A DNA stretch of 64,000 bases from Candidatus Multivoradales bacterium (GCA_965212505.1 OZ243123.1:38141-102140), one strand, 5' to 3'. Shown: positions 11,510 to 60,833, counted from the stretch's first letter. Notes: a model not told the origin generated them from the letters alone. Translations and numbers: made by a program.

Positions 11510-12274
11510 TCAGTTGCGGCCGGCCATCACTCCTCCATCGACGTCCCAGACCGCGCCGGTCACCCAGCTCGCATCGTCCGAAAGCAGATGGTCGATCGTG
11601 GCCGCGACATCGTCGGGTTGGCCGATGCGGCCGATGGGGTGGAAGTCGTCGAAGCTCTGGAGCGTCTCCTCGATCTGGTCGGGCTCGATGAACGCGCCGT
11701 AGATGGGCGTGTGGACGACGGCCGGAGCCACCGCATTCACCCGAATGCCGTCCTTCGCGACCTCCATCGCCAGGTGCTGTGTCAGGGCGTGCAGGCCGGC
11801 CTTTGCCATCGAGTAGGCCGAGGATGGCGTGGCGGCGATCGCCTGCTTGGCCCACATCGACCCGATGTTGACGATCGACCCACCGCCGTTTGCACTCATG
11901 CTGGCGACCACCGCTTGGGTGATGAAGAACGTGGAGCGGTTGAGGCCGTGGTACCTGTCGTAGTCCTGCTTGCTGTGCTCGACAAACGGCCGAGGGCTAA
12001 AGTAGCCGGCCGCGTTGACGAGGTACTGAATCCGTTGCGATGGCTCGCGGAGTGAGGCGGCGAATCGATCTACGGCCGACTCGTCGTAGAGGTCGACGCT
12101 GGCGGTCTCGACGGTGCCGAGAGCGGACAGCTCGGCCCGTGCCTTTTCGAGGCGTGCCTCGTCGCGTGCGACGAGGTGAACGGCGACGCCACGACGCAGG
12201 AGGCGTTCGGCGGTCGCCCTCCCGATTCCGGTGGAGCCGCCGACGATCAGGGCTTTCGTGTTCGAATGGGGCAT
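11510..12274 (-). CDS. Short-chain dehydrogenase/reductase (SDR)
   Basis: GGSTGIG, LVNAAG, YSMAK catalytic motif, DGGVMA. Confidence 0.92.
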
Positions 12275-16526: not shown

Positions 16527-17387
16527 ATGGAGCCCAAACTGATTCTGCTCTTCGCCCTCGGCGTCGTTGGGGCGATTTTCATCTTGATCTGGATCCGGAG
16601 CATTGCGTCGGACGAGCGCCGGGGCCTTCCGACCTGGCTTCAGACGGCGATCGGCTTCGGCACCAACTTCTTCGACACGCTCGGCATCGGCTCGTTCGCT
16701 CCCACCACGTCTCTGTTCAAGCTCTGGAAGGTGGTTCCCGACGAGCGGATCCCTGGAACGCTCAACGTTGGCCATACACCACCGGTCATTGCGCAGGCGT
16801 TCATCTTCGTCGCCATCGTTCAGGTCGACCTGACGACCCTGGTGGCGATGATTGCCGCCTCCGTCGTCGGCGCCTGGCTCGGTGCCGGCATCGTCGCCGA
16901 TCTGCCGCGGCGGCCGATTCAGATCGGTATTGCAGTTGCGCTCTTCCTGGCGGCGGGGTTCTTCGTGATGAGCAATCTGGGAGCCTTCCCGACGGGCGGC
17001 GACGCGCGTGGTCTCGAGGGTGGCGCTTTGCTATTTGCGGTCGGCGTCAACTTCGTCCTGGGAGCCCTCGGCACCCTCGGCATTGGTGTCTACGCACCGA
17101 TCATGACCATGGTGAGTCTGCTCGGGATGAATCCGCAGGTCGCCTTCCCGATCATGATGGGCTCGTGCGCTTTTCTGATGCCGGTGGCGAGCACGCGCTT
17201 CGTGCAGAAACGCAAGTACGGTCTCAAGCCGGCGCTCGGGCTCGCGCTCGGTGGCGTCCCGGCCGTCCTGATCGCGGCGTTGATCGTGAAGTCTCTGCCG
17301 ATCGAGACGCTGCGCTGGCTGGTGGCCGCGGTCGTCTTCTACACGGCCTTCGTGATGCTGCGCTCGGCGCGCAGCGACGCTGGCTAG
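16527..17387 (+). CDS. TauE/SafE (TSUP) family permease
   Basis: Multi-TM; [33 protein letters not shown]. Confidence 0.75.
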
Positions 17388-18487
17388 CTGATCTCGACCG
17401 CCGGCTCGCCGAGCGCCTCGGTGCGCGGAGTGATGCCCAACCCGGCCTCCTCTGAGGCCGCCATCTTGCCGTGATCGCGCTGCGGCGCACCCTCCGCCGT
17501 GCTGACGGTGACGTAGCTGTTGAAGTCGGTCGCCGTGAAGAGCAGCTCCGGAGGCGTCGAGTGGGCAAGATGGGCGATCGCGGCGGTGGTCACGTCGCCG
17601 CCCCAGCTGTCCTCGATGGTCATCGCGACGCCGAGCGAGGCACAGAGGTCGCGCGCCTGGCGGGCTCGGGTGAGGCCGCCGAACTTCGAGATCTTGATGT
17701 TGACCGCATCCATCGCGCCATCGGCGTGGGCTCGCAGCAAGATCGGAATTCCATCGATGTTCTCGTCGAGGACGAAGGGGTGGTCGGTGCGCCGGCGGAT
17801 GGTCAGGCACTCCTCGTAGGAGAGACACGGCTGCTCGATGTAGACGTCGATGTCCCGCACGCCGCGCACCACACGAGCGGCGTCGTGCATCAACCAGCCG
17901 GTGTTCGCGTCGGCGATCAGCACGTCGCCCCGCTCGAGCTCGGCCGCGACCGCGCGAATGCGCTCGATATCGGTGTGGGGGTCGGCGCCGACCTTCAGTT
18001 GGAACTTGCGGTAACCCTCGGCTCGGTAGCAGGCGACTTTGGCCGCCATCGCTCCGGGCGCCTCCTGCGAGATCGCCCGATAGAGCGCGAAGCTCTCGCC
18101 GTAGCGACCGCCGAGCAACGTACAAACCGGGAGCCCGGCGACCTGCCCGAGGATGTCCCAACACGCGATGTCGATGCCCGACTTGACGTACGGATGGCCC
18201 TTGAGCGCTGCATCCATCCAACGATTCAAGCGATCCAGGTCACGCGGGTCGTGGCCGATGAGATGCGGTGCAAGCTCGGCGATGCCTGCGCGGACGCCGC
18301 CGGCATAAGCCGGCAGATAGAAGGGGCCCAGCGGGCAGACCTCTCCGTGCCCGACGACGCCGGTGTCCGTTTCGACCCGTACGATCGTCGAGTCGAAAAC
18401 GGAGACCGACTTACCGCCGGACCAGTTGTAGCTGCCTTCGTGAAGGGGGAGGTCGACCTGGAACGCGGAGATCTTGGTGATCTTCAT
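17384..18487 (-). CDS. Enolase-superfamily (MR/MLE) enzyme, probably cis-3-hydroxy-L-proline dehydratase
   Basis: [56 protein letters not shown]; closely matches my recollection of the Labrenzia c3LHyp dehydratase subgroup. Confidence 0.8.
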
Positions 18488-18527: not shown

Positions 18528-18932
18528 TCAGCCGAGCTTGGAGCCGACGATCGGCAGAGTGTGGCGGCGAATCCAGATCACCAACAGACTGCAGAGGGTC
18601 ACGACGATCGCCAGGCCGAAGAGCAGGCCGCCGTCGCCCTGCACTTCGATGCCGAGCTGGGTCAGATGGCTGACGATCGCGCCGCCCATGACGCCGAGAG
18701 CGATGACCGCGCCGGTTGCCGCGACGCCCGGGATCAGGAGTAGGAGGCTCGCGAAGAGCTCGACGACCCCGGAACCGATGCGGCCCCAGGGCTCCATGCC
18801 GAGCGTCTCGAAGATGTAGACCGACTCCGGTGCGCCGGTGAACTTGAAGAACAGTGTCTGCACCAGAATGACGACCGCGACAAGCTGGGCGAACCAGCTC
18901 ACGCGCTTCTGGGTGGTGGTCAATCGGCTCAT
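18528..18932 (-). CDS. DoxX family membrane protein
   Basis: ILVQTLFFKFTGAPESVYIF..LGMEPWGRIGSGVVEL..GAIVSHL..GDGGLLF; strong SD GAGGAGGA. Confidence 0.85.
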   Translation of the reverse strand: MSRLTTTQKRVSWFAQLVAVVILVQTLFFKFTGAPESVYIFETLGMEPWGRIGSGVVELFASLLLLIPGVAATGAVIALGVMGGAIVSHLTQLGIEVQGDGGLLFGLAIVVTLCSLLVIWIRRHTLPIVGSKLG

Positions 18933-18942
18933 GGTTTCCTCC

Positions 18943-19389
18943 TCACTGGTCCAGCAGGCGCGGCCAGTTGCGATCGGCCTTGGCGACGTTGCCGGGGATG
19001 TCCTTGCGCCATCGGGAGCGCACTGACTTGCTGTAGTTCAGGTAGAGCTTGCCGTCGTGGAGGGTCCACGCCTCGGGGTCGACGTCGGCGGTACTCCCCT
19101 TGCTGACGGCGTACGCGCAGTAGCCGCCGTATTGCGGGGCGAAACGCTTCGGGTCCGCGGCGAAGCGGTCACGGTTCTCGGCGCTCACAAAGCGCCAGGT
19201 GGCGTTCTCCCAGAGATGCTCGTAGGCCTCGTTGCCGCGCTCGGCCGAGCCGTCGAAGTAGGCGACGGCGTCGTAGCTGTGAATCGCGATGTCGCCTCTT
19301 CCCTTGGTGTTGATCGGCTCGACGGCAGAGGCGGCGGTTGCCGCGGTGAGGATCAGGGCAGGTAGCAAGACTCGAAGTGGGTTCCTCAT
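18943..19389 (-). CDS. Secreted YHS-domain protein (YGGYCAY type)
   Basis: Signal peptide; YDAVAYF, FVSAENRDRF, PQYGGYCAYAV, DGKLYLNY. Confidence 0.88.
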   Translation of the reverse strand: MRNPLRVLLPALILTAATAASAVEPINTKGRGDIAIHSYDAVAYFDGSAERGNEAYEHLWENATWRFVSAENRDRFAADPKRFAPQYGGYCAYAVSKGSTADVDPEAWTLHDGKLYLNYSKSVRSRWRKDIPGNVAKADRNWPRLLDQ

Positions 19390-21956
19390 GGGCTCTCAGT
19401 CTCCTTGTCAGGTTCGCGAGTCCAGTCGCGGACACTGGCCATGAGTGTGGCGATCGAGGTCGGCCTTACACCGCGGGCGCGGTTCGCGGCACCGATCTCG
19501 AACGCCAGCCGCCACTGCTCGAAGAGGACCGAGTAGGCGTGTAACAGTCCGTGGGCGGGGTCGTAGATGTGGGTCGCCTCGGAGGTCACGCCGTTGAGCT
19601 CCAGAACCCGAATGTCACGGCCCGTTCTGAAGTGGTCTGCCGTTGGAGCACGAAGATCGAAGCGACCAAAATAGAAACCGTCGAAGCCACGCCCGATGCG
19701 GTCGATCTCGGCGGCGAGCTCCGGGGTCGCGAACTCCCGCCCGTCGAGAAATAGCGCCCCGAGCGAGTGCGTTCCGACGTCGACGAGTTGGACCACTTCG
19801 CCCGCGTGAGGTTGTTCGGTGAGCCTCGCGTGGTGGCGGCGCAGGAAGAGTGGGGCCATGGAGATGGCGCGCGGGTCGTGCAGGATGAGGCGTTCCAGGG
19901 TCGACCGGCCGTCACCGGTGACAGAGATCAATCGCTTGTCGGTGATCGAGAAGATGCTTCCCGCAGGCTCACCCGGAGTGCGAACGTAGAAGACGCCCAG
20001 CTCGTAACCCGGGACGTACTCCTGGACGATGGCGTCCGCAGACATGCGCTCGAGGTAGGCGTCGACGGTCGCCCAGTCGGAGGCGATGGAGACCTCCTTG
20101 CCCCGCTCGCCCGCGTCGGGCTTGAGCACCACCGGCAGCTCGAGGTCGTGCTCGGCGACAAAGCTCTCGATGCGTTGTCGTCGGTCGGTCCGACTCGAGT
20201 CGACAGGGAGTCGCTCGAAGCGCGCCACGCTGTCGCCAGGAAGTCCCGCGAGGATGTTCGACTTCGACTCACCGACGAAGCCGCTCTCGGGGATCGCCGG
20301 GTTGACGGCGGTGAAGAGTGTGAGTGATCGATGCCGGATGCCGAGCCACAGGATCCACAGCCCGACCGGCAGGTAGACGAGCCAGGTAGGCCAGAATTCG
20401 AAGTGACGCCAGCGACGGAGTCTCGACACCCACAGCCGACGTCCGCGCCAGGTGGCGAGGCCTCTTGCCAGGCCGACCAGCAGGCAGAGGGCGACGATGG
20501 CCAGCGGTAGTGCCCAGGAGGCGATCTTGGGGAGCGAGGCGATCCACTCGACCGCGGGCGCCCCGACGACTACGCTCACCCCTACCAGAATGGGCGTCCA
20601 GATCGCCACCGCGAGGGCGAAGTAGCCGGCGAAGGACAGCGCACTCGTACGCAGCAGACCGGCCGCGAAGTAGGTCGGTAGTCGCATTCCTGGTGCAAAT
20701 CGGCTCAACAGGATGACCACCGGACCACGTCGCCGAAACCAGTCCGAGGCGGCGTCGATACTCTCCTCGGCGATGAACCAGCGGAGCGGACGGCGCCGGA
20801 GCCAGGGCCGTCCGAGCCACCGGCCGACTGCGAACAGCGCCAGGTCGCCGACGAAGATGCCGACTCCGCAGGCGAGTGCGGCGAAGCCGAATCCGATCCG
20901 GCCCTGGGCGACGAGCAGGCCAGCGGAGATGCAGGTGAGATCTTCGCTCACGAGCGTCGCGATGGCGAGAAGGACAAACCAGACCAGCGCGGTGAGGCCG
21001 GTGGCGCGTGGCAGGTCGGCGGGGTCCAGCGGTCGCGAGGCGGCCGCCGTACGTTTGTCGGTTGCTGCGGCGCGGGTGAGTGCCGCCCCGCGTTCCACTC
21101 GCTCGAGGAAGTCGCCGAGCGGCGCCGCCAACAGACCGGGGTCGCGGAAGACGGCGAAATGGTCGGTCGGCTGCATCACCAGCTCGCTGTGCGGGACGAT
21201 CCGATGGTGCTCGCGCGCCGCCTGCGCCGGGACGAGAGGGTCGCTCTCGCCGTGGAGGATCAGGGTCGGAACCTCGAGACGGGTCAGCGCCTCGCGCAGA
21301 GGACGTTGGTCTGTGTCGAAGAAGTTCCGCGCGTAGGAGCGATCGAGCATGAAGCCGTCGAATGCGCCGAAGTGCGGCACCCCCTCGTGCAGGAAGGTCA
21401 GGCCGGCGAGCTGTGCTGCGTGGATCGCGCGGTTCAGGTGGAAGCTGCCCAGGAGCTCGAACTCCTGAACGCCGATCGACGCCAGCAGGGTGACGGAGTC
21501 GACCGTCTCGGGTGCGCGCTCGAAGAGTTCGAGCGCCACGCCACCGCCCATGCTGAAGCCGACAACATGGACGGTGGAGCGGTCCAGGCGGCGCAAGAGG
21601 CGCTCGACATACGCCGAATGGGCGCGAATCGAGTAGCTCGGAACGTACCGCTCGCTGGCGCCGAAGCCGGGGAGGTCGGGAGCGATGAGCTCAAAGCGAT
21701 CGGCGAGCAGAGGAGCCAGATAGGCGAAGTCGCGGCTGCCTCCCGGACTCCCGTGCAGAAGCAAGACGGTCGGCAGGTTGGGCCGGTCGGCCCAGCGGCG
21801 GAAGACCAGTCGGACCGGCTGTCCCGCGTCGTCTTCGAGCAGGACCTGCTCGGCACCGGCGGGAAGTGCGACGTCTTCGGCTCTAGACCAGCGGACGAGA
21901 TGGGATGCGAGCAGCAGGCCGAGGTAGATGGCGAGCAGCCACCATCTCAGCTTCAA
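19386..21956 (-). CDS. Triple fusion: alpha/beta hydrolase + DedA/VTT membrane domain + ATP-grasp-like domain
   Basis: LLHGSPG, GFSMGG, HGESDPLVP, DH triad; SEDLTCISAG..RFAPGMR DedA motif; EFWPTWLVY..NPAI..GESK, VLKPDAGERG, VQEYVPG, FGRFDLR, LELNG. TTG 21956 overlaps the DinB stop (TTGA). Confidence 0.85.
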   Translation of the reverse strand: MKLRWWLLAIYLGLLLASHLVRWSRAEDVALPAGAEQVLLEDDAGQPVRLVFRRWADRPNLPTVLLLHGSPGGSRDFAYLAPLLADRFELIAPDLPGFGASERYVPSYSIRAHSAYVERLLRRLDRSTVHVVGFSMGGGVALELFERAPETVDSVTLLASIGVQEFELLGSFHLNRAIHAAQLAGLTFLHEGVPHFGAFDGFMLDRSYARNFFDTDQRPLREALTRLEVPTLILHGESDPLVPAQAAREHHRIVPHSELVMQPTDHFAVFRDPGLLAAPLGDFLERVERGAALTRAAATDKRTAAASRPLDPADLPRATGLTALVWFVLLAIATLVSEDLTCISAGLLVAQGRIGFGFAALACGVGIFVGDLALFAVGRWLGRPWLRRRPLRWFIAEESIDAASDWFRRRGPVVILLSRFAPGMRLPTYFAAGLLRTSALSFAGYFALAVAIWTPILVGVSVVVGAPAVEWIASLPKIASWALPLAIVALCLLVGLARGLATWRGRRLWVSRLRRWRHFEFWPTWLVYLPVGLWILWLGIRHRSLTLFTAVNPAIPESGFVGESKSNILAGLPGDSVARFERLPVDSSRTDRRQRIESFVAEHDLELPVVLKPDAGERGKEVSIASDWATVDAYLERMSADAIVQEYVPGYELGVFYVRTPGEPAGSIFSITDKRLISVTGDGRSTLERLILHDPRAISMAPLFLRRHHARLTEQPHAGEVVQLVDVGTHSLGALFLDGREFATPELAAEIDRIGRGFDGFYFGRFDLRAPTADHFRTGRDIRVLELNGVTSEATHIYDPAHGLLHAYSVLFEQWRLAFEIGAANRARGVRPTSIATLMASVRDWTREPDKETESP

Positions 21957-22483
21957 CGCGCAACGCGCCCCTCGCGGCGCCAGTGCTCGAGCGTCGACGG
22001 CGCGACGCCGAACTCGGCGGGTACCGGGTGCCCGTCGAGTCGTAGCGACAGGGCGATCAGGGCGTAGTGGTGGATCGTGTGGCTCGACAGGAACTGCAGT
22101 TCGCGGCCGATCGTCGAGCCGAGCCACTGGCCCGGGTCGGAGGTCTCGGCCGGCTCTCGGCGCAGTTGGACGGGCTCGGGAAGACTGCCGGAGTCGAGGG
22201 CTTCGAGTCGCTCGATGACCTGAGCCAGCGCGTCGAGGGCGACGGTGCGATCGATCTCGAGGTCGGGCCGACGGGCGCGCGAGCCGTAGTCGATCACCCG
22301 GAGTTCGAGGCCGTCGAGAAAGCAGACGTAGAAGTCCAAGCAGTGCCGGAAGTGCGGGCCGATCGCCGGCGCCGGCGACGGGCCCTTCCGGTCGGAGGTG
22401 TAGGCGCTGTCGGAGAGGCCGTTCAGGAGCTCGACTCCCTGGCGGAGAAGCTCGGTGTTCTGATCGAGGAGTGTCGGGTTCAT
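21953..22483 (-). CDS. DinB/YfiT-like four-helix metalloprotein
   Basis: IGPHFRHCLDFY, DYGSRAR, RELQFLSSHTIHHYALI. Confidence 0.85.
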   Translation of the reverse strand: MNPTLLDQNTELLRQGVELLNGLSDSAYTSDRKGPSPAPAIGPHFRHCLDFYVCFLDGLELRVIDYGSRARRPDLEIDRTVALDALAQVIERLEALDSGSLPEPVQLRREPAETSDPGQWLGSTIGRELQFLSSHTIHHYALIALSLRLDGHPVPAEFGVAPSTLEHWRREGRVAR

Positions 22484-22498
22484 CTCTTTGGGCTCATA

Positions 22499-23257
22499 TT
22501 AGCTGGCTGGAGTGAGCTGTCCGGCGACCGCCTCGCGCAGCTCGTGCGCCAGTGTCTTTCGGTTGTCGCTCTGAATGGGCTCAGAACCGAAGTGCAGGTC
22601 GGCTTGGAATCCGGGCATCGACATGAGTTGCAGAAAGTGGGGAACGAAGGGGCGATCTCCCCACCAGCAGACCGTGTCCGAAGCGGGAGGATCGGACGTG
22701 GTCGTCGAGTAGCGGAGGCTCGCGTAGTCGACGGGGCGGCGAAGCCGTACCGCGATCTCGAGCAGCGACGGGAGGAAGGAAAGCACGCCTTCGCCGTTGG
22801 TCGACGTCCCCTCCGGGAACACGACGATTCCGACGCCTCGCTGGAGGTGCTCGTCCATCTCTCCCAATACCCGCGTCAAGTCTCGACGCGACTCACGATT
22901 GATGAACACCGTACCCATGGCGCGGCAGAGTAGGCCGAGGACGGGCCAGCTCGCCACCTCTTGCTTCGAGACAAAGACGGTGTCGAGACGGCTCGCCAGG
23001 AGCAGAATGTCGACGTAGCCGAGGTGGTTGGAGACGAGTAGAAACGGGGCCTTCGGAGCCGCGCCGTGCACCTCGACTCGGGCACCCGCTTGCCACAAAA
23101 GGCATCTGCAGATGCGCCGGAGGATCGTCGCTCGCCAACGCGATCGGCCGCTCTCGGACAGGACCAAGAAGGGGAGGCCGAGGCCCCAAATCTGGAAGAA
23201 GACCGCGACCGTCACGGCCATCACCGGGAGACGGAGCACCACCCGCAGTCCAGCCAT
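22499..23257 (-). CDS. Lysophospholipid acyltransferase (PlsC/OlsA-like)
   Basis: NHLGYVD (HX4D), FVSK, FINR, FPEGT; ATG overlaps the upstream TGA (TGATG). Confidence 0.9.
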   Translation of the reverse strand: MAGLRVVLRLPVMAVTVAVFFQIWGLGLPFLVLSESGRSRWRATILRRICRCLLWQAGARVEVHGAAPKAPFLLVSNHLGYVDILLLASRLDTVFVSKQEVASWPVLGLLCRAMGTVFINRESRRDLTRVLGEMDEHLQRGVGIVVFPEGTSTNGEGVLSFLPSLLEIAVRLRRPVDYASLRYSTTTSDPPASDTVCWWGDRPFVPHFLQLMSMPGFQADLHFGSEPIQSDNRKTLAHELREAVAGQLTPAS

Positions 23258-24045
23258 CAACGAACGAAGTTGCGCAGCATGCGCTGCGGCATGTCGAAGA
23301 GGTCGAACAGCATCAGGAAGTCGATCGTCTTGAACCGACGATCGATCGCCGGCCCGCTACAGATTCGCGCACCGTGATGCAGATAGATTCGGAACAGATC
23401 CGGAAGCGTCTCTCCCGACGGCTCGACAGCGGCTTCGTCCATCTCGCACGCGAACTTGGCGCGCGTGCGCACGGTCAGCTCCGAATGCAGGTAGCCCTCG
23501 CGACGGAGGTAGGCCATCAATTCGGCTCCGACTCGAGGGTCCTGGCTGGTGACCGAGGAGCAGCCGAACAGGTAGCGCTTACCGTGGGTCGAAAGGTAGA
23601 GCACGAGGCCGCGCCAGAGCAGGAAGAGTACGCGGACGCCTCGGTGCGCCTTGGCGACGCACGCGCGGCCGATCTCGACCGACTCTTCGAGTACCGGAGC
23701 GCTGAGGTCGTCGAGCACGTACTCGTCGTTGCAGTAGAAGCCGATATTGGCTGCGGCGATCTCCGGCGTCTGCATGCGATAGCTCCCGACGATCTCGCCC
23801 TTGTCGGTGTCGCGGATGATCAGGTGGTCGCAGACGGCGTCGAACGGGTCTTCGTCGCGGCCGGTGTCGTACGAGGAGTCGAGCCCCTCGCCGAGCTCGA
23901 GGTTGAAGACCTCGAATCGCATGCGCAGAACTGCGTCGAGCTCTTCCGGAGCGCGCGCGAAGCTGAGCTCGTAGCGCCCCTCTCGGATGACCTCGTCCGG
24001 AAGAGTGTCGGTGCGCAGATTGCGATCGGAGACCGACCTAGCCAC
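23257..24045 (-). CDS. GNAT N-acyltransferase, OlsB-like (ornithine/amino-lipid N-acyltransferase)
   Basis: LRMRFEVFNLEL, DEDPFDAVCDHL, VGSYRM, EIGRACV, YLFGCSS, YLHHGA..PAIDRRFKTIDF; GTG 24045 with GGAG SD. Confidence 0.85.
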   Translation of the reverse strand: MARSVSDRNLRTDTLPDEVIREGRYELSFARAPEELDAVLRMRFEVFNLELGEGLDSSYDTGRDEDPFDAVCDHLIIRDTDKGEIVGSYRMQTPEIAAANIGFYCNDEYVLDDLSAPVLEESVEIGRACVAKAHRGVRVLFLLWRGLVLYLSTHGKRYLFGCSSVTSQDPRVGAELMAYLRREGYLHSELTVRTRAKFACEMDEAAVEPSGETLPDLFRIYLHHGARICSGPAIDRRFKTIDFLMLFDLFDMPQRMLRNFVR

Positions 24046-24796
24046 CTTCGACTCCCAGGCGGATGAAGTCGGCGGCGTTGGCGCGGAGGTAGGAGAGTCC
24101 GTCTCGTTCGACGAGCTCACCCTCGACCGACACCGGCTCCGCAATGCGGTCGAGGAGCTCCCGGCCGATCGGCTCGCCGCTCGTGCCCGTGATCAGCAAA
24201 AGGAGCTGCGCGCCGTCGGGATCGGAGGTGACGAACAGCGGCGGCACGCCACCGCTGATGCAGCGTGTCGCGCAGTCCTGATGCGTCTTGCCTCGACCCG
24301 GCTTCATCACGCCGAGGTAGCACTTGCTGTCTAGAATCTCGCCGACGAGTTGATGGTGGCCCAATGTCCGCTCACCTTCTACGCGGGTCGTCTCTCCCCT
24401 CGACTCTTGTGGCGCCTCGCCGGTGAGCTCGATCATCTTCCGGTCGCCGCGGTAGATGAGCTGGCCGTCGACGGCAAGCCGTTGACCGTCGAACGCTTCC
24501 AATTCCGGTCGCGCCCCCCACTTCCCGAACTCCACCAGGAGGTGCGGCTCGCTGCCGTTGTCCCCGTCGACGTGGAGCACCGGGTAGGGCGTGACCGTCA
24601 GCCGACCTTCGAACGTTCGTACCGTGCCGAACTCGAAGTGCGCGTCCGAGAACCGACCCTGGAGGCTGGCGAGAACCGCCGGTACGACGATGGCCAAGCC
24701 GAGAAGTCCCACGACCACTCGACGAACCCAGCGCCCGACAGTAGGCGAGGCCTGGGACTGGTAACCGATGTAGAAGTCGTCGCGAGGCTCAGGCAT
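24038..24796 (-). CDS. Membrane-anchored periplasmic protein with C-Y-x11-H-x2-C-A-x2-C motif
   Basis: One N-terminal TM; GEILDSKCYLGVMKPGRGKTHQDCATRCISGGVP. Confidence 0.75.
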   Translation of the reverse strand: MPEPRDDFYIGYQSQASPTVGRWVRRVVVGLLGLAIVVPAVLASLQGRFSDAHFEFGTVRTFEGRLTVTPYPVLHVDGDNGSEPHLLVEFGKWGARPELEAFDGQRLAVDGQLIYRGDRKMIELTGEAPQESRGETTRVEGERTLGHHQLVGEILDSKCYLGVMKPGRGKTHQDCATRCISGGVPPLFVTSDPDGAQLLLLITGTSGEPIGRELLDRIAEPVSVEGELVERDGLSYLRANAADFIRLGVEGG

Positions 24797-25832
24797 GGTC
24801 GGTCTCGATCGGGGTGGGTTCGATCTCGGTGCCGGCGGGGCTGGGGTTCGGGTCGACTTTCACGCGGTCGCCCGCGACCCGAAGTCGGAAGGTCGGTACC
24901 TTCTCGTTGAACGGAGGCGGCGAGGAACCGCTCTCTAGTCGGTACTCGTAGCCGTGCCACGGACAGACGGCACAGCCGTTGATGACCCGTCCCTCCCCGA
25001 GGGGGCCGTTCTGATGCTGGCAGACGTTCGACAGCGCCGACAGTCGCCCAGCGTGGCGGAAGACGGCAACTCGCTCGCCTCCGATCGAACGGACGACCGC
25101 TCTGTCCTCGGGGATCTCTCGGACTGCACAGAAGTCGACGAAGCCGTCATCGGCGACTGGGGAGTTGCGGTCGTCGGCGCGCCCCCTGAGGGCGGCGGCG
25201 ACGTGCAGGATGGTGACGAGCAGCACTCCGGCCATGAGTACGGCGGTGAGAATCGGGTCGGTTTCTTGCTGCAGCACCCCGAGCGCCACGTGCGCCACGA
25301 TCAGACCGTAAGCGAGGTAGACGCCCATGTGAAGGCGCTTCCAGGTGGGCGCGGAGAGGTTCGCGAGCCAGAAGTCGTGGCTGGTTGCGGCCATCAGGAA
25401 CAGAATGACGAGAGCCGCCAGCCCGAGCTGCTGAAAGGGGAACTGCGCCACGCTCGTCCACCGTCCGTTCGACGTCAGCACGCTCACCAGTGGGTTTACG
25501 TCGCCGAGGGCGTGGAACTGAACGATCGAGAAGCCGCCGTGCGCCAGCGCGGTGAGGAACATGACGACACCCAGGTGTCTGCGGTTGTAGAGCAACGGCA
25601 GGAAGCGAGGGTCGAGTCGGCAGAGCGGCCCGATCACGAGGACCACGTGGAGAAGGAAGAGGGCCGCGGTGCCGAGCGCGCGGATCAGGAGCGTCTCGAT
25701 CGTGGTCTGAGGATGCGTCGTCAGCCCGACGCCGATGAAGGCGCCAAGATAGAGGAGGAGTCCTCCGACGACGGCTAGGTCGTAGCGTTTCTTCTGGCGA
25801 TTCCAGCCGACGCCCTTGTAGCCTACCGTCAT
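24789..25832 (-). CDS. Ferric-reductase-like (MsrQ-type) heme b membrane domain fused to a Rieske [2Fe-2S] domain
   Basis: Six TMs with RRHLG, LAHG, WKRLH, VAHV; C-terminal CQHQNGPL..CPWHG Rieske ligands. Confidence 0.9.
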   Translation of the reverse strand: MTVGYKGVGWNRQKKRYDLAVVGGLLLYLGAFIGVGLTTHPQTTIETLLIRALGTAALFLLHVVLVIGPLCRLDPRFLPLLYNRRHLGVVMFLTALAHGGFSIVQFHALGDVNPLVSVLTSNGRWTSVAQFPFQQLGLAALVILFLMAATSHDFWLANLSAPTWKRLHMGVYLAYGLIVAHVALGVLQQETDPILTAVLMAGVLLVTILHVAAALRGRADDRNSPVADDGFVDFCAVREIPEDRAVVRSIGGERVAVFRHAGRLSALSNVCQHQNGPLGEGRVINGCAVCPWHGYEYRLESGSSPPPFNEKVPTFRLRVAGDRVKVDPNPSPAGTEIEPTPIETDHA

Positions 25833-25975
25833 GGGGTGACCTCGGCTCCGGCCGGTAGACGATCGACCTCGGGCACCGGTTGGCGTGAAGAGACCGCCAG
25901 GAGAATCAGGAGCGGCAGGGCCACGAGGAGCGCGAGCCACCAGCGCCGATGCCAGGCTCGGAGGGGAGCGATCAT
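25829..25975 (-). CDS. 48-aa single-TM protein MIAPLRAWHRRWWLALLVALPLLILLAVSSRQPVPEVDRLPAGAEVTP (not in ORF track)
   Basis: ATGA overlaps at both ends exactly bridge the neighbouring genes; positive N-region plus hydrophobic helix. Confidence 0.8.
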   Translation of the reverse strand: MIAPLRAWHRRWWLALLVALPLLILLAVSSRQPVPEVDRLPAGAEVTP

Positions 25976-26229
25976 CGGCCCGCCGCCGCTCTGTGAGCGT
26001 TTGTCTCAGCCGGCGGCTCGGTCTGGCCACCGAACCAGCGCCGGGCGAGCAGCGGCCAGAGCGCGATCGATGCCGGCAGAATGAGGAGTTTGAAACTCAG
26101 CGGCGCGTCTCGCGCGCCGGGGTCGATGCGCGCCGCGCCGCGTACGACGAATGCGACGCCAAACAGCAAGCCCAAGGCGACATACAGACCTGTCGCTCCG
26201 ACGATCCAGCTGGCCCAGCTCGCGTCCAT
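25972..26229 (-). CDS. Small two-TM membrane protein, first gene of the operon
   Basis: YVALGLLFGVAFVVRGAARIDPGA..FKLLILPASIALWP; start ATG 26229 or GTG 26235. Confidence 0.75.
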   Translation of the reverse strand: MDASWASWIVGATGLYVALGLLFGVAFVVRGAARIDPGARDAPLSFKLLILPASIALWPLLARRWFGGQTEPPAETNAHRAAAGR

Positions 26230-26374
26230 TTGCACTCCCGACTGTCTCTTCCTGCTCAATATATAGCAGCGAAGGGAGGGTCCCATTCACGTGAGGGAAA
26301 GGTGACATCTCTCGCCGCTGCCGCTCCGCGAGCCGGGCGAGTCGCCGGCCCTCAGGTATGTGCCGGGAGCCTCG

Positions 26375-27625
26375 ATGCGGTTACAGACTGCTAGCCTACG
26401 GACCGTGAGAACGCTCCTGTGCGCCCTCCTCGTGTCGCTTCTCTTCGGTGCACACCCAGCCTGGGCCAAGGACAAACCGAAGCCGGTGCATCGCATCTTC
26501 CTGGTCGGCGAGAGCGCCGAGTGGGTCGACACCCGGGTCGATGTGCGGCCGCAGGACCGCGTGGCGATCCGCGCTGGCGCTGAAGTTTGCTTCAGCGGCG
26601 GGCGGGAGGAGTCGTGCGTTCGTGCCGTCGGTTGGCCGCGGGCCAGCTTCGCCGGCGACTGGCCCGAGGATGCGGCGGCCTGTGAGGACCCGTTTCCGGA
26701 GTGGGATCACGCTGCACTGGTAGCGCAGGTTGGCGAGGAGATCGTTCCGATCGGTCGCCAGGCGGTGCTCGAGAATCTGGAGGGCCGTCTCCGGCTCTCG
26801 ATCAACGACTGCTCGTTCGAGGGTGAGTTGAGGAACTCCGGCCAGTTCAGCGTGGTTGTTCTGCTCGAGAACCCAAGAGCGCACGCGGCCCGGAGCGGAC
26901 GAGAGCTGATCGAGGCGGCGATCGACGCGCTCGGTGGAGGTGCGATTCGCGGTGTGCGGAGCCTGCGCGCGCGAGCGGCGTGCACGGGTCCGGGTGGGGA
27001 GTTCACCACCGAGGTACTCACCCTCGCTCCGGACAAGACGCTTTTCAAACAGACGTCAGACGCTGGTCAGACGGAAATCCTCGCCGAGGGCGACCGGGCG
27101 TGGACGATCGACCGCGCTACGGGGCGGCGCCGGAAGGCGAAGAAGATGGTGCGCTTTGTGCGCGGTCATGAGTTCCACGACCTTCTTTTGCGGCTGGACG
27201 AGCGCTTCACCGCGCCCACCCTCCCGATGGTCGAGGAGGGGGCGGTCGAAGACGCTCCAGAGGCCGCCGAAGCGTGTCTGCGCGTCGAGATGCTCGATCT
27301 GTACGGCGCTCCGGCGGCGGTCTGCCTCGATCCCGAGACCTCGATGCCCGTGCGCCTCAGCTACCAGCCGGCAGGCAGGAAGAAGGACCCCACGATCGAG
27401 GTCGAGCTCGAAAGCTGGCGCGAGATCGACGGCGTGCAGTTTCTCGAAGCGTTCACCCTCCGGCAGGGTGACGACGTCTTCACCTATCGGTACGACGAAC
27501 TCCTGCCCAACGCCGTCAGCCGCGACAACTTCCGCGCGGTGTCGCCACGGGCACTCAAGGAGATCCGGAAGCGGCTCGAAGAGAACCGCTCCACGGATTC
27601 CTCGGAAGCGCCTACTGGCAGTTGA
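26375..27625 (+). CDS. Secreted two-domain protein (N-terminal LecA/PA-IL-like beta-sandwich; C-terminal LolA-like fold)
   Basis: Signal peptide AWA-K; WVDTRVDV..LRLSIND..NSGQFSVVV; second domain ELIEAAIDALGG..VCLDPETSMP..WREIDGVQF. Domain names are by-eye resemblance. Confidence 0.55.
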   Translation: MRLQTASLRTVRTLLCALLVSLLFGAHPAWAKDKPKPVHRIFLVGESAEWVDTRVDVRPQDRVAIRAGAEVCFSGGREESCVRAVGWPRASFAGDWPEDAAACEDPFPEWDHAALVAQVGEEIVPIGRQAVLENLEGRLRLSINDCSFEGELRNSGQFSVVVLLENPRAHAARSGRELIEAAIDALGGGAIRGVRSLRARAACTGPGGEFTTEVLTLAPDKTLFKQTSDAGQTEILAEGDRAWTIDRATGRRRKAKKMVRFVRGHEFHDLLLRLDERFTAPTLPMVEEGAVEDAPEAAEACLRVEMLDLYGAPAAVCLDPETSMPVRLSYQPAGRKKDPTIEVELESWREIDGVQFLEAFTLRQGDDVFTYRYDELLPNAVSRDNFRAVSPRALKEIRKRLEENRSTDSSEAPTGS

Positions 27626-29254: not shown

Positions 29255-29749
29255 CTAGAGAGAGTCCGACGGCACGCTGCGGATCTTCGGCCACTGACGC
29301 TCGGCCTTGTCGATGTTCGCGAGCAGCTTCTTCTCCCAGGTCGCTTTGATCGCGGGGTTCAGGTTGAAGAAGAGGCGGCCGTCGACGATTCGGAAGACCT
29401 CGGGGTCACCGTCGAACTTCTTCCCAACGGAGACCCCGTAGGCGCAGAAGCCGCCGTAGGAGGGGGCGTAACGCTCTGGGTCCCGGACGAAGGTGCGCAG
29501 ATTCTCGCGCGTTGCGAAGCGATAGACGGCACCGTTGTGCAGGGTGGAAAACTCGGCGAGCCCGCGGCGGGGGGCGCCGTCGGTGAAGTAGGAGACGGCG
29601 TCGAAGCCGTGGATGGCAAGCGGTCCGCCCGCAGCGGTCAGTCCGTTCGATGTGCTGACGTCGACGACGCCGGCGAAGGCGACGCCCGTGATCGACGCGA
29701 CGACGAGGAGCGCGAGCAGTGTGGTGGAGAGTCGGCGAGAGTAGGTCAT
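29255..29749 (-). CDS. Second secreted YHS-domain protein
   Basis: HGFDAVSYF, YRFATREN, PSYGGFCAYGV, DGRLFFN. Confidence 0.88.
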   Translation of the reverse strand: MTYSRRLSTTLLALLVVASITGVAFAGVVDVSTSNGLTAAGGPLAIHGFDAVSYFTDGAPRRGLAEFSTLHNGAVYRFATRENLRTFVRDPERYAPSYGGFCAYGVSVGKKFDGDPEVFRIVDGRLFFNLNPAIKATWEKKLLANIDKAERQWPKIRSVPSDSL

Positions 29750-30341: not shown

Positions 30342-31259
30342 ATGGATGTGCTGAGCCGAATCCTCGACGGTGTTCGTATGCGGGGGAGCCTCTACTTCCC
30401 GACCCACTTCCGTGGCGATTTCGGCCTGGTCGTGCCTGCCGAGTCGACGGTGTGCAGGTTTCATGTCGTGGTCGAAGGCTCCTGCCGGGTGTCGACAGAC
30501 TCCGAGGAGGTCTGCCTCGAGCGGGGAGATCTGGTGCTCGTCCCGCACGGTCAGGAGCACACGCTGCGTCATTCGCCCACCGCGCCGCGGGTAGATCTCG
30601 ACCGTGCCCTCGAGTCCGCCGCCTACCTCGGAAGCGGGGACTTCAAATGGGGGGACGGCGAGACGACCTGTCGCCTGGTCTGTGGGCACTTCGAGTTCGA
30701 CAAAGAGGTTACCCATCCTCTGTTGAGCGCCTTGCCCGACCTCGTGCACGTACGAGCGCGGCCGACGTACGACTTCCGCTGGATCGACCAGGTGATGCGT
30801 TTCATGGGCGAGGAGATGCACGGGCGGCGGCCCGGTAGCGACATCATCGCGAGCCGACTCGCGGAGGTCCTCTTCGTTCAGGTTCTTCGCCACTACGCGG
30901 AGAGCGAACCCGACTCGATGCCGGTTCTCTCGGGGATCACCGACCCGCGGCTGAGCCGAGTCCTCCATTCCATGCACACCGGTCTCGACAAGCCCTGGAC
31001 TCTGCAGACGCTGGCGGAGGAAGCAGCCATGTCGCGCACCAACTTTGCACTTCAGTTCTCCGAGAAGATCGGCGCGACACCGATGGCCTACCTGACCGAG
31101 CAGCGAATGCAGGCGGCGAGCCGCCTGCTGCGAACCGGCGAGACCGTCGGCAGGGTGGCGTCGCAGGTCGGCTACCGCTCGGTTGCGGCCTTTACGCGTC
31201 GGTTCACTTCTGTCTTTGGCGAGGCGCCGGGTAGCTATCGGCGGAGGCGCGCGTCGTGA
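30342..31259 (+). CDS. AraC family regulator with Cupin_6 domain (RclR-like)
   Basis: MDVLSRIL, CRLVCGHF, DPRLSRVL..PWTLQTLA..MSRTNF, VGYRSVAAF. Confidence 0.9.
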   Translation: MDVLSRILDGVRMRGSLYFPTHFRGDFGLVVPAESTVCRFHVVVEGSCRVSTDSEEVCLERGDLVLVPHGQEHTLRHSPTAPRVDLDRALESAAYLGSGDFKWGDGETTCRLVCGHFEFDKEVTHPLLSALPDLVHVRARPTYDFRWIDQVMRFMGEEMHGRRPGSDIIASRLAEVLFVQVLRHYAESEPDSMPVLSGITDPRLSRVLHSMHTGLDKPWTLQTLAEEAAMSRTNFALQFSEKIGATPMAYLTEQRMQAASRLLRTGETVGRVASQVGYRSVAAFTRRFTSVFGEAPGSYRRRRAS

Positions 31260-60741: not shown

Positions 60742-60833
60742 TGGCGGAGAGGGAGGGATTCGAACCCTCGGACCAGGTTACCCCAGTCGCCTGCTTAGCA
60801 AGCAGGTCCGTTCGACCACTCCGGCACCTCTCC
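60742..60833 (-). tRNA. tRNA-Ser(GCT)
   Basis: GGAGAGG/CCTCTCC acceptor stem, CCTGC-TTGCTAA-GCAGG anticodon arm, long variable arm, GAGGG-TTCGAAT-CCCTC T-arm, encoded CCA. Confidence 0.97.

Follow-up and report, generated by a model that had tools for sequence, protein, structure and literature searches.

Amino lipids, for example the ornithine lipids, are major phosphorus-free membrane lipids. MprF acts as both synthase and flippase of aminoacyl-phosphatidylglycerol, and AcvB/PA0919-type proteins are periplasmic hydrolases. The enzymes that extend amino lipid head groups to give taurine-ornithine, Ser-Gly and Orn-Ser-Gly lipids are unidentified, the ATP dependence of the taurine step having been known since the 1970s. 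Cerilipin of Gluconobacter cerinus results from ATP-dependent transfer of taurine to the carboxylate of an ornithine lipid, the gene for which is not known, and Ser-Gly and Orn-Ser-Gly lipids also exist, with glycine lipid as the Ser-Gly lipid intermediate and no extension enzyme named in the review (PMC12971839). In Singulisphaera, OlsH is a GH3-type adenylating enzyme and OlsI an O-acyltransferase (PMC12493201). Neither an amino lipid flippase nor a periplasmic amino lipid hydrolase is mentioned in the two amino lipid reviews of 2024 and 2026. Fusions listed in a survey of the DedA family involve only rhodanese, PAP2 and pyridine-nucleotide-disulfide oxidoreductase, and a ferric-reductase-domain (FRD) protein joined to a Rieske domain, in some cases also to a flavin mononucleotide (FMN) module, has been catalogued without function as architecture 'M4' (Zhang et al. 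2013; PMC3591440). Here we describe a ten-gene operon (g1 to g10) at positions 18528-26229 on the minus strand of a 64,000 nucleotide stretch of DNA (hereafter the window) from the Acidobacteriota (Thermoanaerobaculia-like) genome of Candidatus Multivoradales bacterium (GCA_965212505.1 OZ243123.1:38141-102140), in which OlsB-like and OlsA-like acyltransferases are encoded together with a protein fusing hydrolase, DedA and ATP-grasp domains and with a redox cassette.

The ten open reading frames (ORFs) are consecutive, and the junctions calculated from their coordinates, in the order g1 to g10, are -4 (ATGA), -4 (ATGA), -8, -8, -1 (TGATG), +15, -4 (TTGA), -4 (ATGA) and +10. An earlier reading of this DNA, referred to below as the original prediction, had listed the same ten genes and junctions, and both were reproduced exactly by the ORF coordinates; its domain assignments also hold in Pfam, NCBIfam and profile searches, DinB and DoxX being borderline. 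Start codons were picked by Shine-Dalgarno context and homologue lengths agree, with g8 comprising 856 amino acids (aa) both in our call and in the database gene call, g4 matching the database at 252 aa, the start Met of g3 aligning with 56 homologues, and g1 and g2 aligning with their homologues from residue 1 onwards. The ten-gene operon is genuine, and its gene arrangement is far beyond chance because the same families recur jointly on many unrelated contigs. Functional statements throughout are drawn from sequence, predicted structure and gene context.

Gene neighbourhoods reaching approximately 10 kb were scored with tblastn and with a crude caller of ORFs that weights GC content at third codon positions (GC3), the collection scans giving the best 80 loci. 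The three-domain fusion encoded by g8 has more than 2381 database relatives and at least 577 confirmed matches in species-representative genomes. Carriers are mostly Acidobacteriota (Blastocatellia, Thermoanaerobaculia), with further examples in Gemmatimonadota, Planctomycetota, Rhodothermia, KSB1 and Verrucomicrobiota, and the cultured planctomycete Engelhardtia mirabilis Pla133 carries the lipid core in the order OlsB-LPLAT-DinB-TANGO2-fusion (L079; NZ_CP036287.1, about 847-852 kb). Acidobacteria bacterium Mor1 (CP011806.1, L025) is a further candidate for a culturable carrier. Of the best 80 loci in the tblastn matrix, 45 had at least 3 kb on either side of the fusion, and among these 45 the neighbouring genes encoded OlsB (38 loci), LPLAT (33), DinB (32), a TANGO2/NRDE-type protein between DinB and the fusion (18), the g1/g3/g4 cassette (12), DoxX (10) and YHS (1). 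A metagenome scan anchored on g4 gave 25 loci with flanks of at least 3 kb, of a kind that may be phylogenetically redundant and related to one another, and here g1 and g3 were present in all 25, DinB and ATP-grasp in 19 each, DedA and TANGO2 in 18 each, DoxX in 16, OlsB in 15, YHS in eight, LPLAT in three and alpha/beta hydrolase in none. The redox and lipid halves of the operon, which the original prediction had joined, are thus found together in other phyla also (19 of 25 and 12 of 45 loci), so that the check which that prediction had set for itself, co-occurrence of the halves elsewhere, does not refute it, and inclusion of YHS and DoxX is borne out by their recurrence with the set in the g4-anchored loci and, for DoxX, in the fusion-anchored loci also.

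The same families occur together in at least three gene orders across Acidobacteriota, Gemmatimonadota and Rhodothermia. Layout A, seen in the window and in related loci L003, L004, L084, L060, L080 and L168, reads g1-g2-g3-g4-OlsB-LPLAT-DinB-(TANGO2)-fusion-(YHS)-(DoxX). Layout B, in which SDR denotes a short-chain dehydrogenase, consists of SDR-g1-g2-g3-g4, OlsB on the opposite strand, and YHS-DoxX-DinB-DedA-TANGO2-ATP-grasp as separate genes. Layout C again has OlsB on the opposite strand, with DoxX-DinB-[DedA-ATP-grasp]-TANGO2-SDR-g1-g3-g4-DUF4440, and lies next to an extracytoplasmic function (ECF) sigma gene paired with a zf-HC2 anti-sigma gene (L112, L128, L152, L102, L110, L097), as well as to MIP channel, GMC oxidoreductase and glyoxalase-family genes. 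The same set was found on the Pfam-annotated independent contigs L001, L084, L166 and L168, and in L084 and L168 the lipid genes sit between g1-g4 and a Rieske-fused glutamate-synthase-like flavoprotein. In 23 loci a TANGO2/NRDE gene (Ntn-like, with an N-terminal Cys) lies between DinB and the fusion (for example L005 1665-2426 and L168 3592-4353). The original list of members was therefore incomplete, having missed the recurrent TANGO2/NRDE, SDR, Rieske-fused flavoenzyme, DUF4440 and ECF sigma/anti-sigma genes, which are absent from the window. A search of the 64-kb window for a Rieske-flavoenzyme, pyridoxal phosphate (PLP) decarboxylase, TANGO2, ECF sigma factor, MIP channel and GMC oxidoreductase found none of them.

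The three domains of g8 were each characterized further. The flank on the N-terminal side of its membrane anchor is positive in the alignment consensus (RRxR). In the hydrolase domain S135 (within GFSMGG), D239 and H266 are invariant, and a Foldseek search with full-length g8 gave matches for this domain to esterases, to PhaZ and to a membrane phospholipase A (6i8w); esterases dominated that search, which gave no information on the ATP-grasp domain. The best NCBIfam match of the DedA domain is to UptA (7.6e-16, 58.8 bits against a cut-off of 250). Its invariant residues E338/D339 and R419/R425 correspond to re-entrant-helix residues of COG0586 DedA proteins, and the loop at 387-438 is very Arg-rich. 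The DedA survey associates two Arg residues of re-entrant helix 2 with anionic cargo, and retention of both in g8 fits transport of an anionic molecule. Pfam matches to the ATP-grasp domain are weak, RimK scoring 16.8 bits in g8, below the gathering score of 21, and 23.7 bits, above it, in the homologue from L125. A single-sequence search of the PDB was too weak, and a profile was built from ten family members; this matched 2pn1 (2e-7), cyanophycin synthetase (7e-6), glutathione synthase/GshAB (3e-5 to 8e-5), the D-Ala-D-Ala ligase Ddl (3e-4) and RimK (1e-3). K612, E786 and N788 are invariant, in keeping with the ATP-binding Lys and Mg-binding E/N of the ATP-grasp superfamily, and there is no match of g8 to the ATP-grasp_4 family. 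On these profile scores the domain appears nearest to amide- or peptide-bond-forming ligases. The ATP-grasp family comprises 1146 clusters at 50% identity (E<=1e-30), in three main lengths, approximately 350-400 aa for the domain alone, 520-600 aa when DedA is included and 850-900 aa when both hydrolase and DedA are.

The association of hydrolase, DedA and ATP-grasp, also part of the original prediction, is real and is not restricted to the arrangement in g8. DedA, TANGO2 and ATP-grasp are separate genes in L125, DedA and ATP-grasp form one protein in L112, and rarer fusions combine TANGO2-hydrolase-DedA-ATP-grasp (P0390), TANGO2-ATP-grasp (P0319) and hydrolase-ATP-grasp (P0243). Existence of both fission and fusion variants is strong evidence for joint action of hydrolase, DedA, ATP-grasp and TANGO2. 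These variants also inform the topology of g8, which was approached by sequence logic. In P0390 the TANGO2 domain starts with Met-Cys and is followed by an Arg-rich stretch, one transmembrane (TM) segment and the hydrolase; as the Met-Cys start leaves no signal peptide, this TANGO2 domain is presumably cytoplasmic. P0243 has exactly one clear TM segment between hydrolase and ATP-grasp. A hydrophobic WEFWP...PP segment with positive charges on both flanks precedes every ATP-grasp domain and is the only hydrophobic segment in stand-alone ATP-grasp proteins, one of which has none at the threshold used; this segment is read as a probable monotopic hairpin. In the DedA protein YqjA, A20 and S52/V59 have been mapped to the periplasm and the C-terminus to the cytoplasm, and the protein has two re-entrant hairpins in addition to three helices that span the membrane (bioRxiv 10.1101/2021.10.18.464800). 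From the order of segments in P0390 and P0243, the N-out/C-in core of YqjA and the Arg-rich loop, we infer that the hydrolase of g8 is periplasmic and the ATP-grasp cytoplasmic with the DedA domain between them.

The two acyltransferase genes g5 and g6 are adjacent and translationally coupled. The best NCBIfam match of g5 is to OlsB over its full length (2e-40), with scores below equivalog level for both OlsB models (NF052554, 139 bits, cut-off 350; NF052555, 138 bits, cut-off 320). Similarly, the best full-length matches of g6 are to OlsA models (124 and 117 bits, cut-off 300), and its HX4D motif (H78, D83) and E149/T151/S152 (EGT) block are conserved. DinB enzymes commonly handle thiols, and g7 scores at the border of this superfamily (DinB_2 3.9e-5, 24.5 bits, cut-off 24.8; DinB 19.5 bits, cut-off 23), with conserved His residues at positions 47, 135, 138 and 139 (H47, H135, H138, H139) and no sequence relative in the PDB.

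Genes g1 to g4 constitute the redox cassette. No Pfam or NCBIfam family was found for g1, in which Y16, G20, D36, W58-P59, R64, E75 and H79 are invariant across cassette loci. The g2 product is a short form of a protein which in other loci is 150-170 aa long and has a periplasmic domain; an invariant N-terminal MI.PLR..HR motif is followed in the alignment by a TM segment, and the C-terminal domain of homologues in L083, L085, L125 and L119 is missing from g2 of the window. The g3 product matches the Pfam families Ferric_reduct (1.5e-12; 48.1 bits, cut-off 28) and Rieske (1.6e-15; 57.2 bits, cut-off 20.3). It has six TM segments by hydropathy, and the heme-ligating His residues H86/H98 (TM3) and H168/H181 (TM5) as well as the Rieske ligands C271-x-H273...C290-xx-H293 are kept in 56 homologues, features shared with the FRD superfamily and with Rieske [2Fe-2S] proteins respectively. 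Given the positively charged N-terminus and six TM segments, the Rieske domain, which is of small ferredoxin type, should be cytoplasmic. No oxygenase catalytic domain is present with it, and the redox tailoring of a lipid envisaged in the original prediction has no direct support. Identification of g3 as the MsrQ component of MsrPQ was considered and rejected, the score against the MsrQ equivalog model being 43.9 bits, below the cut-off of 130, and no molybdopterin oxidoreductase (the MsrP partner) being encoded in the operon or related loci.

The fourth cassette protein was correctly labelled Cys3His in the original prediction, since C159, H172, C175 and C179 of g4 are invariant in 27 homologues. 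In the AlphaFold2 model (pLDDT 89), which consists of an N-terminal anchor helix and two beta-barrels, this site lies on a helix-loop-helix insert. All 506 homologues of g4 are annotated 'hypothetical' and no credible Pfam family is apparent, one of the 120 listed homologues having a precomputed PF19135 match. Comparison with the PDB gave no fold match at E<1e-3 and no sequence-profile match, the insignificant matches being OB-fold-like. An RR pair, checked as a possible twin-arginine signal, is missing from about half of the sequences in the alignment.

The g9 protein scores 153 bits against the NF041384 cut-off of 70. This YHS family includes selenoproteins with a GxU motif (PMC13188914), and in g9 the sequence GYC at residues 89-91 places Cys91 at the selenocysteine (Sec) position, GGYC being kept in all 13 homologues from related loci. 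Because GYC sits at the GxU position of the family, it probably marks Cys91 as a redox-active residue. A second YHS gene of the same selenoprotein-family type, its product 38% identical to g9, was observed approximately 3 kb upstream of the operon, adjoining an ORF for a secreted or membrane protein and another whose N-terminus is AraC-like by appearance. The g10 protein scores 24.5 bits against the DoxX_2 cut-off of 26.3 and, at the threshold applied to hydropathy, has three TM segments; its homologue in L001 is annotated DoxX_2 in precomputed matches. The original prediction had DoxX proteins moving electrons across the inner membrane, which is not established knowledge.

Possible partners of the cassette were found at loci in which it stands alone, its immediate neighbour there being a glutamate-synthase-type FMN protein or a Rieske-FMN-reductase, and at L001, where it follows Rieske-glutamate-synthase-like and Rieske-thiamine pyrophosphate (TPP) enzymes. 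Rieske-fused cytoplasmic enzymes are encoded at L001 2781-6389, L084 17478-19100, L168 9461-10465 and L085 7119-8222. In L001 the TPP enzyme has a Rieske domain that shares 46% identity with the one in g3, indicating that the same Rieske module occurs both on the membrane conduit and on enzymes of the cytoplasm. This agrees with the FRD architecture already described in which Rieske and FMN domains are present (PMC3591440), and suggests cytoplasmic flavoenzymes as the redox partners of the cassette.

The best reading of these data, although one to which we give somewhat less than an even chance, is that the operon builds an acyloxyacyl amino lipid, extends it at a carboxylate by means of the ATP-grasp, flips it and trims it, with an accessory redox arm facing the periplasm. 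The three recurrent modules (g5-g8, g1-g4 and g9-g10) would, equally tentatively, serve one envelope function. The OlsB-like g5 and OlsA-like g6 would build the acyloxyacyl amino lipid at the cytoplasmic face, and the membrane-anchored ATP-grasp of g8 would spend ATP on an amide bond at its free carboxylate. Head-group extension is proposed because the product of an OlsB-type enzyme has a free alpha-carboxylate and ATP-grasp enzymes activate carboxylates; most likely an amino acid or amine would join the head group, much as taurine-ornithine or peptide lipids are built. Movement of the anionic lipid across the inner membrane would then fall to the DedA domain, and on the other side the periplasmic serine-hydrolase domain could trim the lipid or turn it over, with the DinB protein g7 as a tightly coupled cytoplasmic metal enzyme of the pathway. 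In the redox arm, g3 would pass electrons between its cytoplasmic Rieske domain and the periplasmic face via two hemes b to g4, with g1, g2 and the Cys3His protein g4 as its constant partners at the periplasmic face, whilst the YHS protein g9, with Cys at the Sec position of its relatives, and the DoxX protein g10 would add further periplasm-facing redox parts. The arm may act on or protect the same lipid or envelope target, and like the substrates and the direction of electron flow this is a deduction.

Several observations weigh against this reading. The lipid core occurs without the cassette in 33 of the 45 fusion-anchored loci, and in L083, from a Planctomycetota metagenome-assembled genome (MAG), and in L085 no lipid genes accompany the cassette. 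The gene set is modular, not obligate, and joint biochemical action of cassette and lipid core is not required, as the lipid core is usually without the cassette and the cassette can occur alone. LPLAT and the hydrolase, both listed in the original prediction, are not core members and are dispensable, being found in few or none of the cassette-anchored loci (3/25 and 0/25, respectively). Of the 'single pathway' of that prediction, conservation of the redox-lipid linkage elsewhere stands, whereas unity of the pathway does not follow, the modules being separable. The likeness of the ATP-grasp to solved ligases spans only the central ATP-binding part and does not fix the substrate; OlsB and OlsA scores far below equivalog cut-offs likewise do not fix the head-group amino acid; and the DedA domain is matched best by undecaprenyl-phosphate transporters (UptA). 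Some of the metagenome loci may be redundant in phylogenetic terms, the neighbourhood scoring covered approximately 10 kb by tblastn, and the roles given to all ten members are predictions from sequence and context.

The modularity bears most directly on an unlikely, though far from negligible, alternative in which the operon is a co-regulated stress island, with lipid remodelling and periplasmic redox repair or metal reduction independent of each other and grouped by joint expression, for example under an ECF sigma factor. Each module does occur without the other, and among the g4 relatives and ATP-grasp-family architectures examined no protein fuses a cassette gene to a lipid gene. In Layout C the ECF sigma/zf-HC2, MIP, GMC oxidoreductase and glyoxalase-family genes indicate a setting of oxidant or electrophile stress. 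The link to envelope oxidative stress in the original prediction is plausible, the sigma/anti-sigma pair lying beside the set in that layout, but the 64-kb window has no ECF sigma gene. Shared expression also accounts less well for adjacency that survives at least three rearranged orders and several phyla, or for the lipid genes inserted between cassette and Rieske flavoprotein in L084 and L168, and the asymmetric dependence of the cassette on the lipid set (19/25 loci) suggests more than shared regulation. At the other extreme, chance juxtaposition of unrelated genes in one lineage is hardly credible; some synteny is merely local, as with the gene downstream of the operon, but the occurrence of the same families on many contigs in several phyla and in different orders, together with the fission and fusion variants, contradicts it.

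Other alternatives concern the substrate of g8. LplT-Aas is a known system for return and re-acylation of lyso-lipids, and in an analogous but improbable Lands-type repair cycle the periplasmic hydrolase would cut a damaged acyl chain, DedA would return the lyso-lipid, the ATP-grasp would convert a free fatty acid to its acyl-phosphate and LPLAT would re-acylate. This agrees with the topology proposed above (hydrolase outside, transporter, ATP-dependent enzyme inside) and with the similarity of the hydrolase to phospholipase A 6i8w. An ATP-grasp enzyme of Legionella is, moreover, credited with formation of N-acyl-histidine from a fatty acid (PMC11631085), a precedent by analogy with which fatty acid activation might be an alternative role for the g8 domain. 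However, most cassette-anchored loci have ATP-grasp, DedA and OlsB-like genes but neither LPLAT nor alpha/beta hydrolase, and the nearest solved ATP-grasps act on amino acid or peptide carboxylates, there being no ATP-grasp_4 match. The frequent absence of LPLAT would instead suit a product other than a membrane lipid, a small N-acyl amino acid or peptide or a low-molecular-weight thiol-like cofactor, which is made on a transient acyl anchor, exported and freed by the Ntn-type TANGO2 or the serine hydrolase. PF13444 also holds N-acyl amino acid synthases (with a FeeM match of 5.9e-6 in L125), thiol handling is common among DinB enzymes, the ATP-grasp is weakly similar to ligases of the glutathione synthase type and a PLP decarboxylase or aminotransferase adjoins the set in some loci. 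We nevertheless consider such a product quite improbable, as OlsB-like and OlsA-like genes are adjacent and coupled in the window and in most fusion loci, like true amino lipid operons, and a DedA lipid translocator is always present with no small-molecule exporter conserved. Very improbable is an action of g8 on a polyprenyl-linked envelope intermediate with DedA as undecaprenyl-phosphate flippase. The UptA match (7.6e-16) and both conserved re-entrant-helix Arg residues would be explained, but the score falls far short of the UptA cut-off, the conserved neighbours include no glycosyltransferase or polyprenyl enzyme, and the most constant of them is OlsB-like. Extension of an amino lipid at its carboxylate is the reading that we retain. 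Combining it with the redox arm leads to a decidedly speculative proposal, in which a lipid-anchored, redox-active head group at the periplasmic face (such as a thiol amino acid added by the ATP-grasp) is kept reduced, or a peroxidised amino lipid is repaired, by electrons which the Rieske/bis-heme protein takes from cytoplasmic Rieske flavoenzymes and passes on to the Cys3His, YHS and DoxX proteins. If true, such a lipid redox buffer or lipid-peroxide repair system would have no described bacterial counterpart.

Features of the operon and of its surroundings are collected in Table 1. A plus-strand gene for a secreted protein begins near 26403, divergent to the operon, and the intergenic region between them is the presumed operon promoter region. 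A consensus scan of the operon and upstream region found no sigma-70 consensus, an Rfam scan found no family within or near the operon, and terminator-like matches were all weak and inside coding sequence, and thus uninformative on transcription units. The two secreted-protein genes on the 5' side of the operon have no Pfam family. The mandelate racemase-type (MR/MLE) gene lies 40 nt beyond the 3' end of the operon and was rejected as an eleventh member, its synteny being found only in the two closest relatives (L003, L004), and an SDR gene elsewhere in the window was not counted as a member, being a generic SDR of 34-39% identity. PADLOC gave no match for any of the ten proteins, and an anti-phage defence system was rejected on this basis. 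Elsewhere in the window are two genes for paralogous secreted proteins with nearly identical N-termini, and a tRNA gene, the sole RNA gene detected by Rfam and tRNA scans.

Table 1. Features of the operon and other genes of the window (positions from its first nucleotide)
Feature	Position	Strand	Basis or remark
g1, 85-aa two-TM protein, first cassette gene	25972-26229	-	two hydrophobic segments
g2, 48-aa single-TM protein	25829-25975	-	alignment
g3, six-TM ferric-reductase-type bis-heme b protein with C-terminal Rieske domain	24789-25832	-	Pfam
g4, N-terminally anchored, predicted periplasmic Cys3His protein, two beta-barrels	24038-24796	-	AlphaFold2 and alignment
g5, OlsB-like N-acyltransferase (PF13444), GTG start	23257-24045	-	Acetyltransf_5 3.4e-27
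g6, OlsA-like lysolipid O-acyltransferase (LPLAT)	22499-23257	-	Acyltransferase 1.5e-22
g7, DinB-superfamily protein, translationally coupled to g8	21953-22483	-	borderline DinB_2
g8, hydrolase-DedA-ATP-grasp, TTG start, 856 aa	19386-21956	-	ORF and domain searches
g8 N-terminal TM anchor, aa 2-25	21882..21953	-	hydropathy and AlphaFold2 helix 2-25
g8 alpha/beta-hydrolase, aa ~35-300	21057..21854	-	Abhydrolase_1 1.9e-34
g8 DedA/VTT domain, aa ~318-501	20454..21005	-	VTT_dom 1.5e-15, 58.2 bits vs 33.9
g8 ATP-grasp, aa ~545-845, after hydrophobic hairpin aa 522-540	19422..20324	-	profile vs PDB
g9, secreted YHS-domain protein, family NF041384	18943-19389	-	YHS_seleno_dom 3e-45
g10, DoxX-family small membrane protein	18528-18932	-	DoxX_2 3.1e-5, borderline
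Divergent intergenic region, ~170 bp, 5' of g1	26230..26402	.	GC3 frame analysis and sequence
MR/MLE gene, 3' of operon	17384-18487		not a member
SDR gene	11579-12250		not counted as member
Secreted protein, ~407 aa	26403-27625	+	5' side of operon
Secreted protein, ~499 aa	27612-29111	-	5' side of operon
Second YHS gene	29255-29749	-	paralogue of g9
Secreted/membrane ORF, 131 aa	29780-30175		adjoins second YHS gene
ORF with AraC-like N-terminus	30342-31259	+	adjoins second YHS gene
Secreted protein, ~990 aa	39539-42520	+	paralogue of next
Secreted protein, ~990 aa	46467-49442	+	paralogue of preceding
tRNA-Ser(GCT)	60742-60833	-	Rfam and tRNA scans

A number of further genes were observed around the related loci. 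In Layout C the MIP channel has a Cys-rich C-terminal tail, the glyoxalase-family protein is secreted and has two domains, and an HbpS-like+cupin protein is encoded nearby. In L084 (15531-17481) and L168 (7470-9457) the fusion is separated from the Rieske flavoprotein by TAtT (TPR-type TRAP-associated) and DctP solute-binding genes, with no TRAP membrane subunit nearby. A group II PLP decarboxylase gene adjoins DoxX and OlsB, or a class III aminotransferase gene adjoins the fusion, in L001 (6900-8381), L031, L099 and L166 (13607-14800), and an unusual head group (amine or amino acid) could derive from such an enzyme. In one clade (L017, L019, L020, L022, L027, L030) a gene for a P450-BM3-like fatty acid hydroxylase/reductase fusion of 1085 aa is located 4-7 kb downstream of the fusion, a recurrence that may be local synteny. 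The fusion is also carried by MAGs labelled Heliomicrobium or Heliobacteriaceae (L015, L017, L020, L030, L035, L058, L061, L062); these taxonomic labels look doubtful because most such loci share the OlsB/LPLAT(/DinB) neighbourhood of Blastocatellia.

These data make g8 a concrete and widespread candidate for head-group extension, flipping and hydrolysis in one protein. They also give a first genomic context to the Rieske/bis-heme cassette, the Cys3His protein and bacterial TANGO2 homologues, and link all three to membrane lipid metabolism in phyla (Acidobacteriota, Gemmatimonadota, Planctomycetota) that are dominant in soil and sediment and poorly studied. The original prediction knew of no described pathway with the full set, and in agreement with this a full-text literature search, outside which most subscription journals lie, found no description of the fusion, the cassette or the cluster. 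The gene set is unmentioned in the 2024 and 2026 amino lipid reviews, the DedA survey lists other fusions and the FRD survey gives the architecture only. The parts belong to known superfamilies, and the assembly is new relative to the literature searched, with an uncharacterised redox cassette attached.

Among described systems, the cassette protein g3 resembles MsrQ and the FRD superfamily in its six TM segments, four heme His residues on TM3 and TM5 and predicted electron transfer at the inner membrane, and its Rieske fusion had already been catalogued; it differs in lacking MsrP and in having g1, g2 and g4 as constant partners, often with Rieske-fused flavo- or TPP enzymes or SDR. The DedA domain shares with UptA, YqjA and other COG0586 proteins the VTT domain with acidic and two basic re-entrant-helix residues, but in g8 it forms a single protein with a hydrolase and an ATP-grasp. 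As with OlsB/OlsA, and also GlsB/GlsA and GluB, a PF13444 N-acyltransferase and an HX4D O-acyltransferase are encoded by adjacent, coupled genes, whereas the pair in the window scores far below equivalog level and is embedded with DinB, DedA, ATP-grasp and redox genes, and in relatives TANGO2. OlsH/OlsI also bring an ATP-dependent amide-forming enzyme and an alpha/beta-hydrolase-fold protein to amino lipid synthesis; here the enzyme is instead an ATP-grasp, an OlsB-like enzyme is present in addition and the hydrolase is predicted to face the periplasm. Cerilipin and the Ser-Gly and Orn-Ser-Gly lipids have an amide at the head-group carboxylate, and an ATP-grasp beside OlsBA is the kind of enzyme expected for its formation. 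MprF with AcvB/PA0919 offers a parallel in predicted spatial organization, in that both would join a head-group enzyme in the cytoplasm, a translocator for the lipid and an alpha/beta hydrolase in the periplasm, encoded together though from unrelated domains. Neither a tRNA-dependent synthase nor an MprF flippase domain was found by Pfam and NCBIfam in the ten proteins, the ATP-grasp, DedA and hydrolase here form one chain, and the lipid concerned is probably not phosphatidylglycerol but an amino lipid. By analogy, the operon may work like an amino lipid operon extended by an MprF/AcvB-like unit for making, flipping and trimming the lipid.

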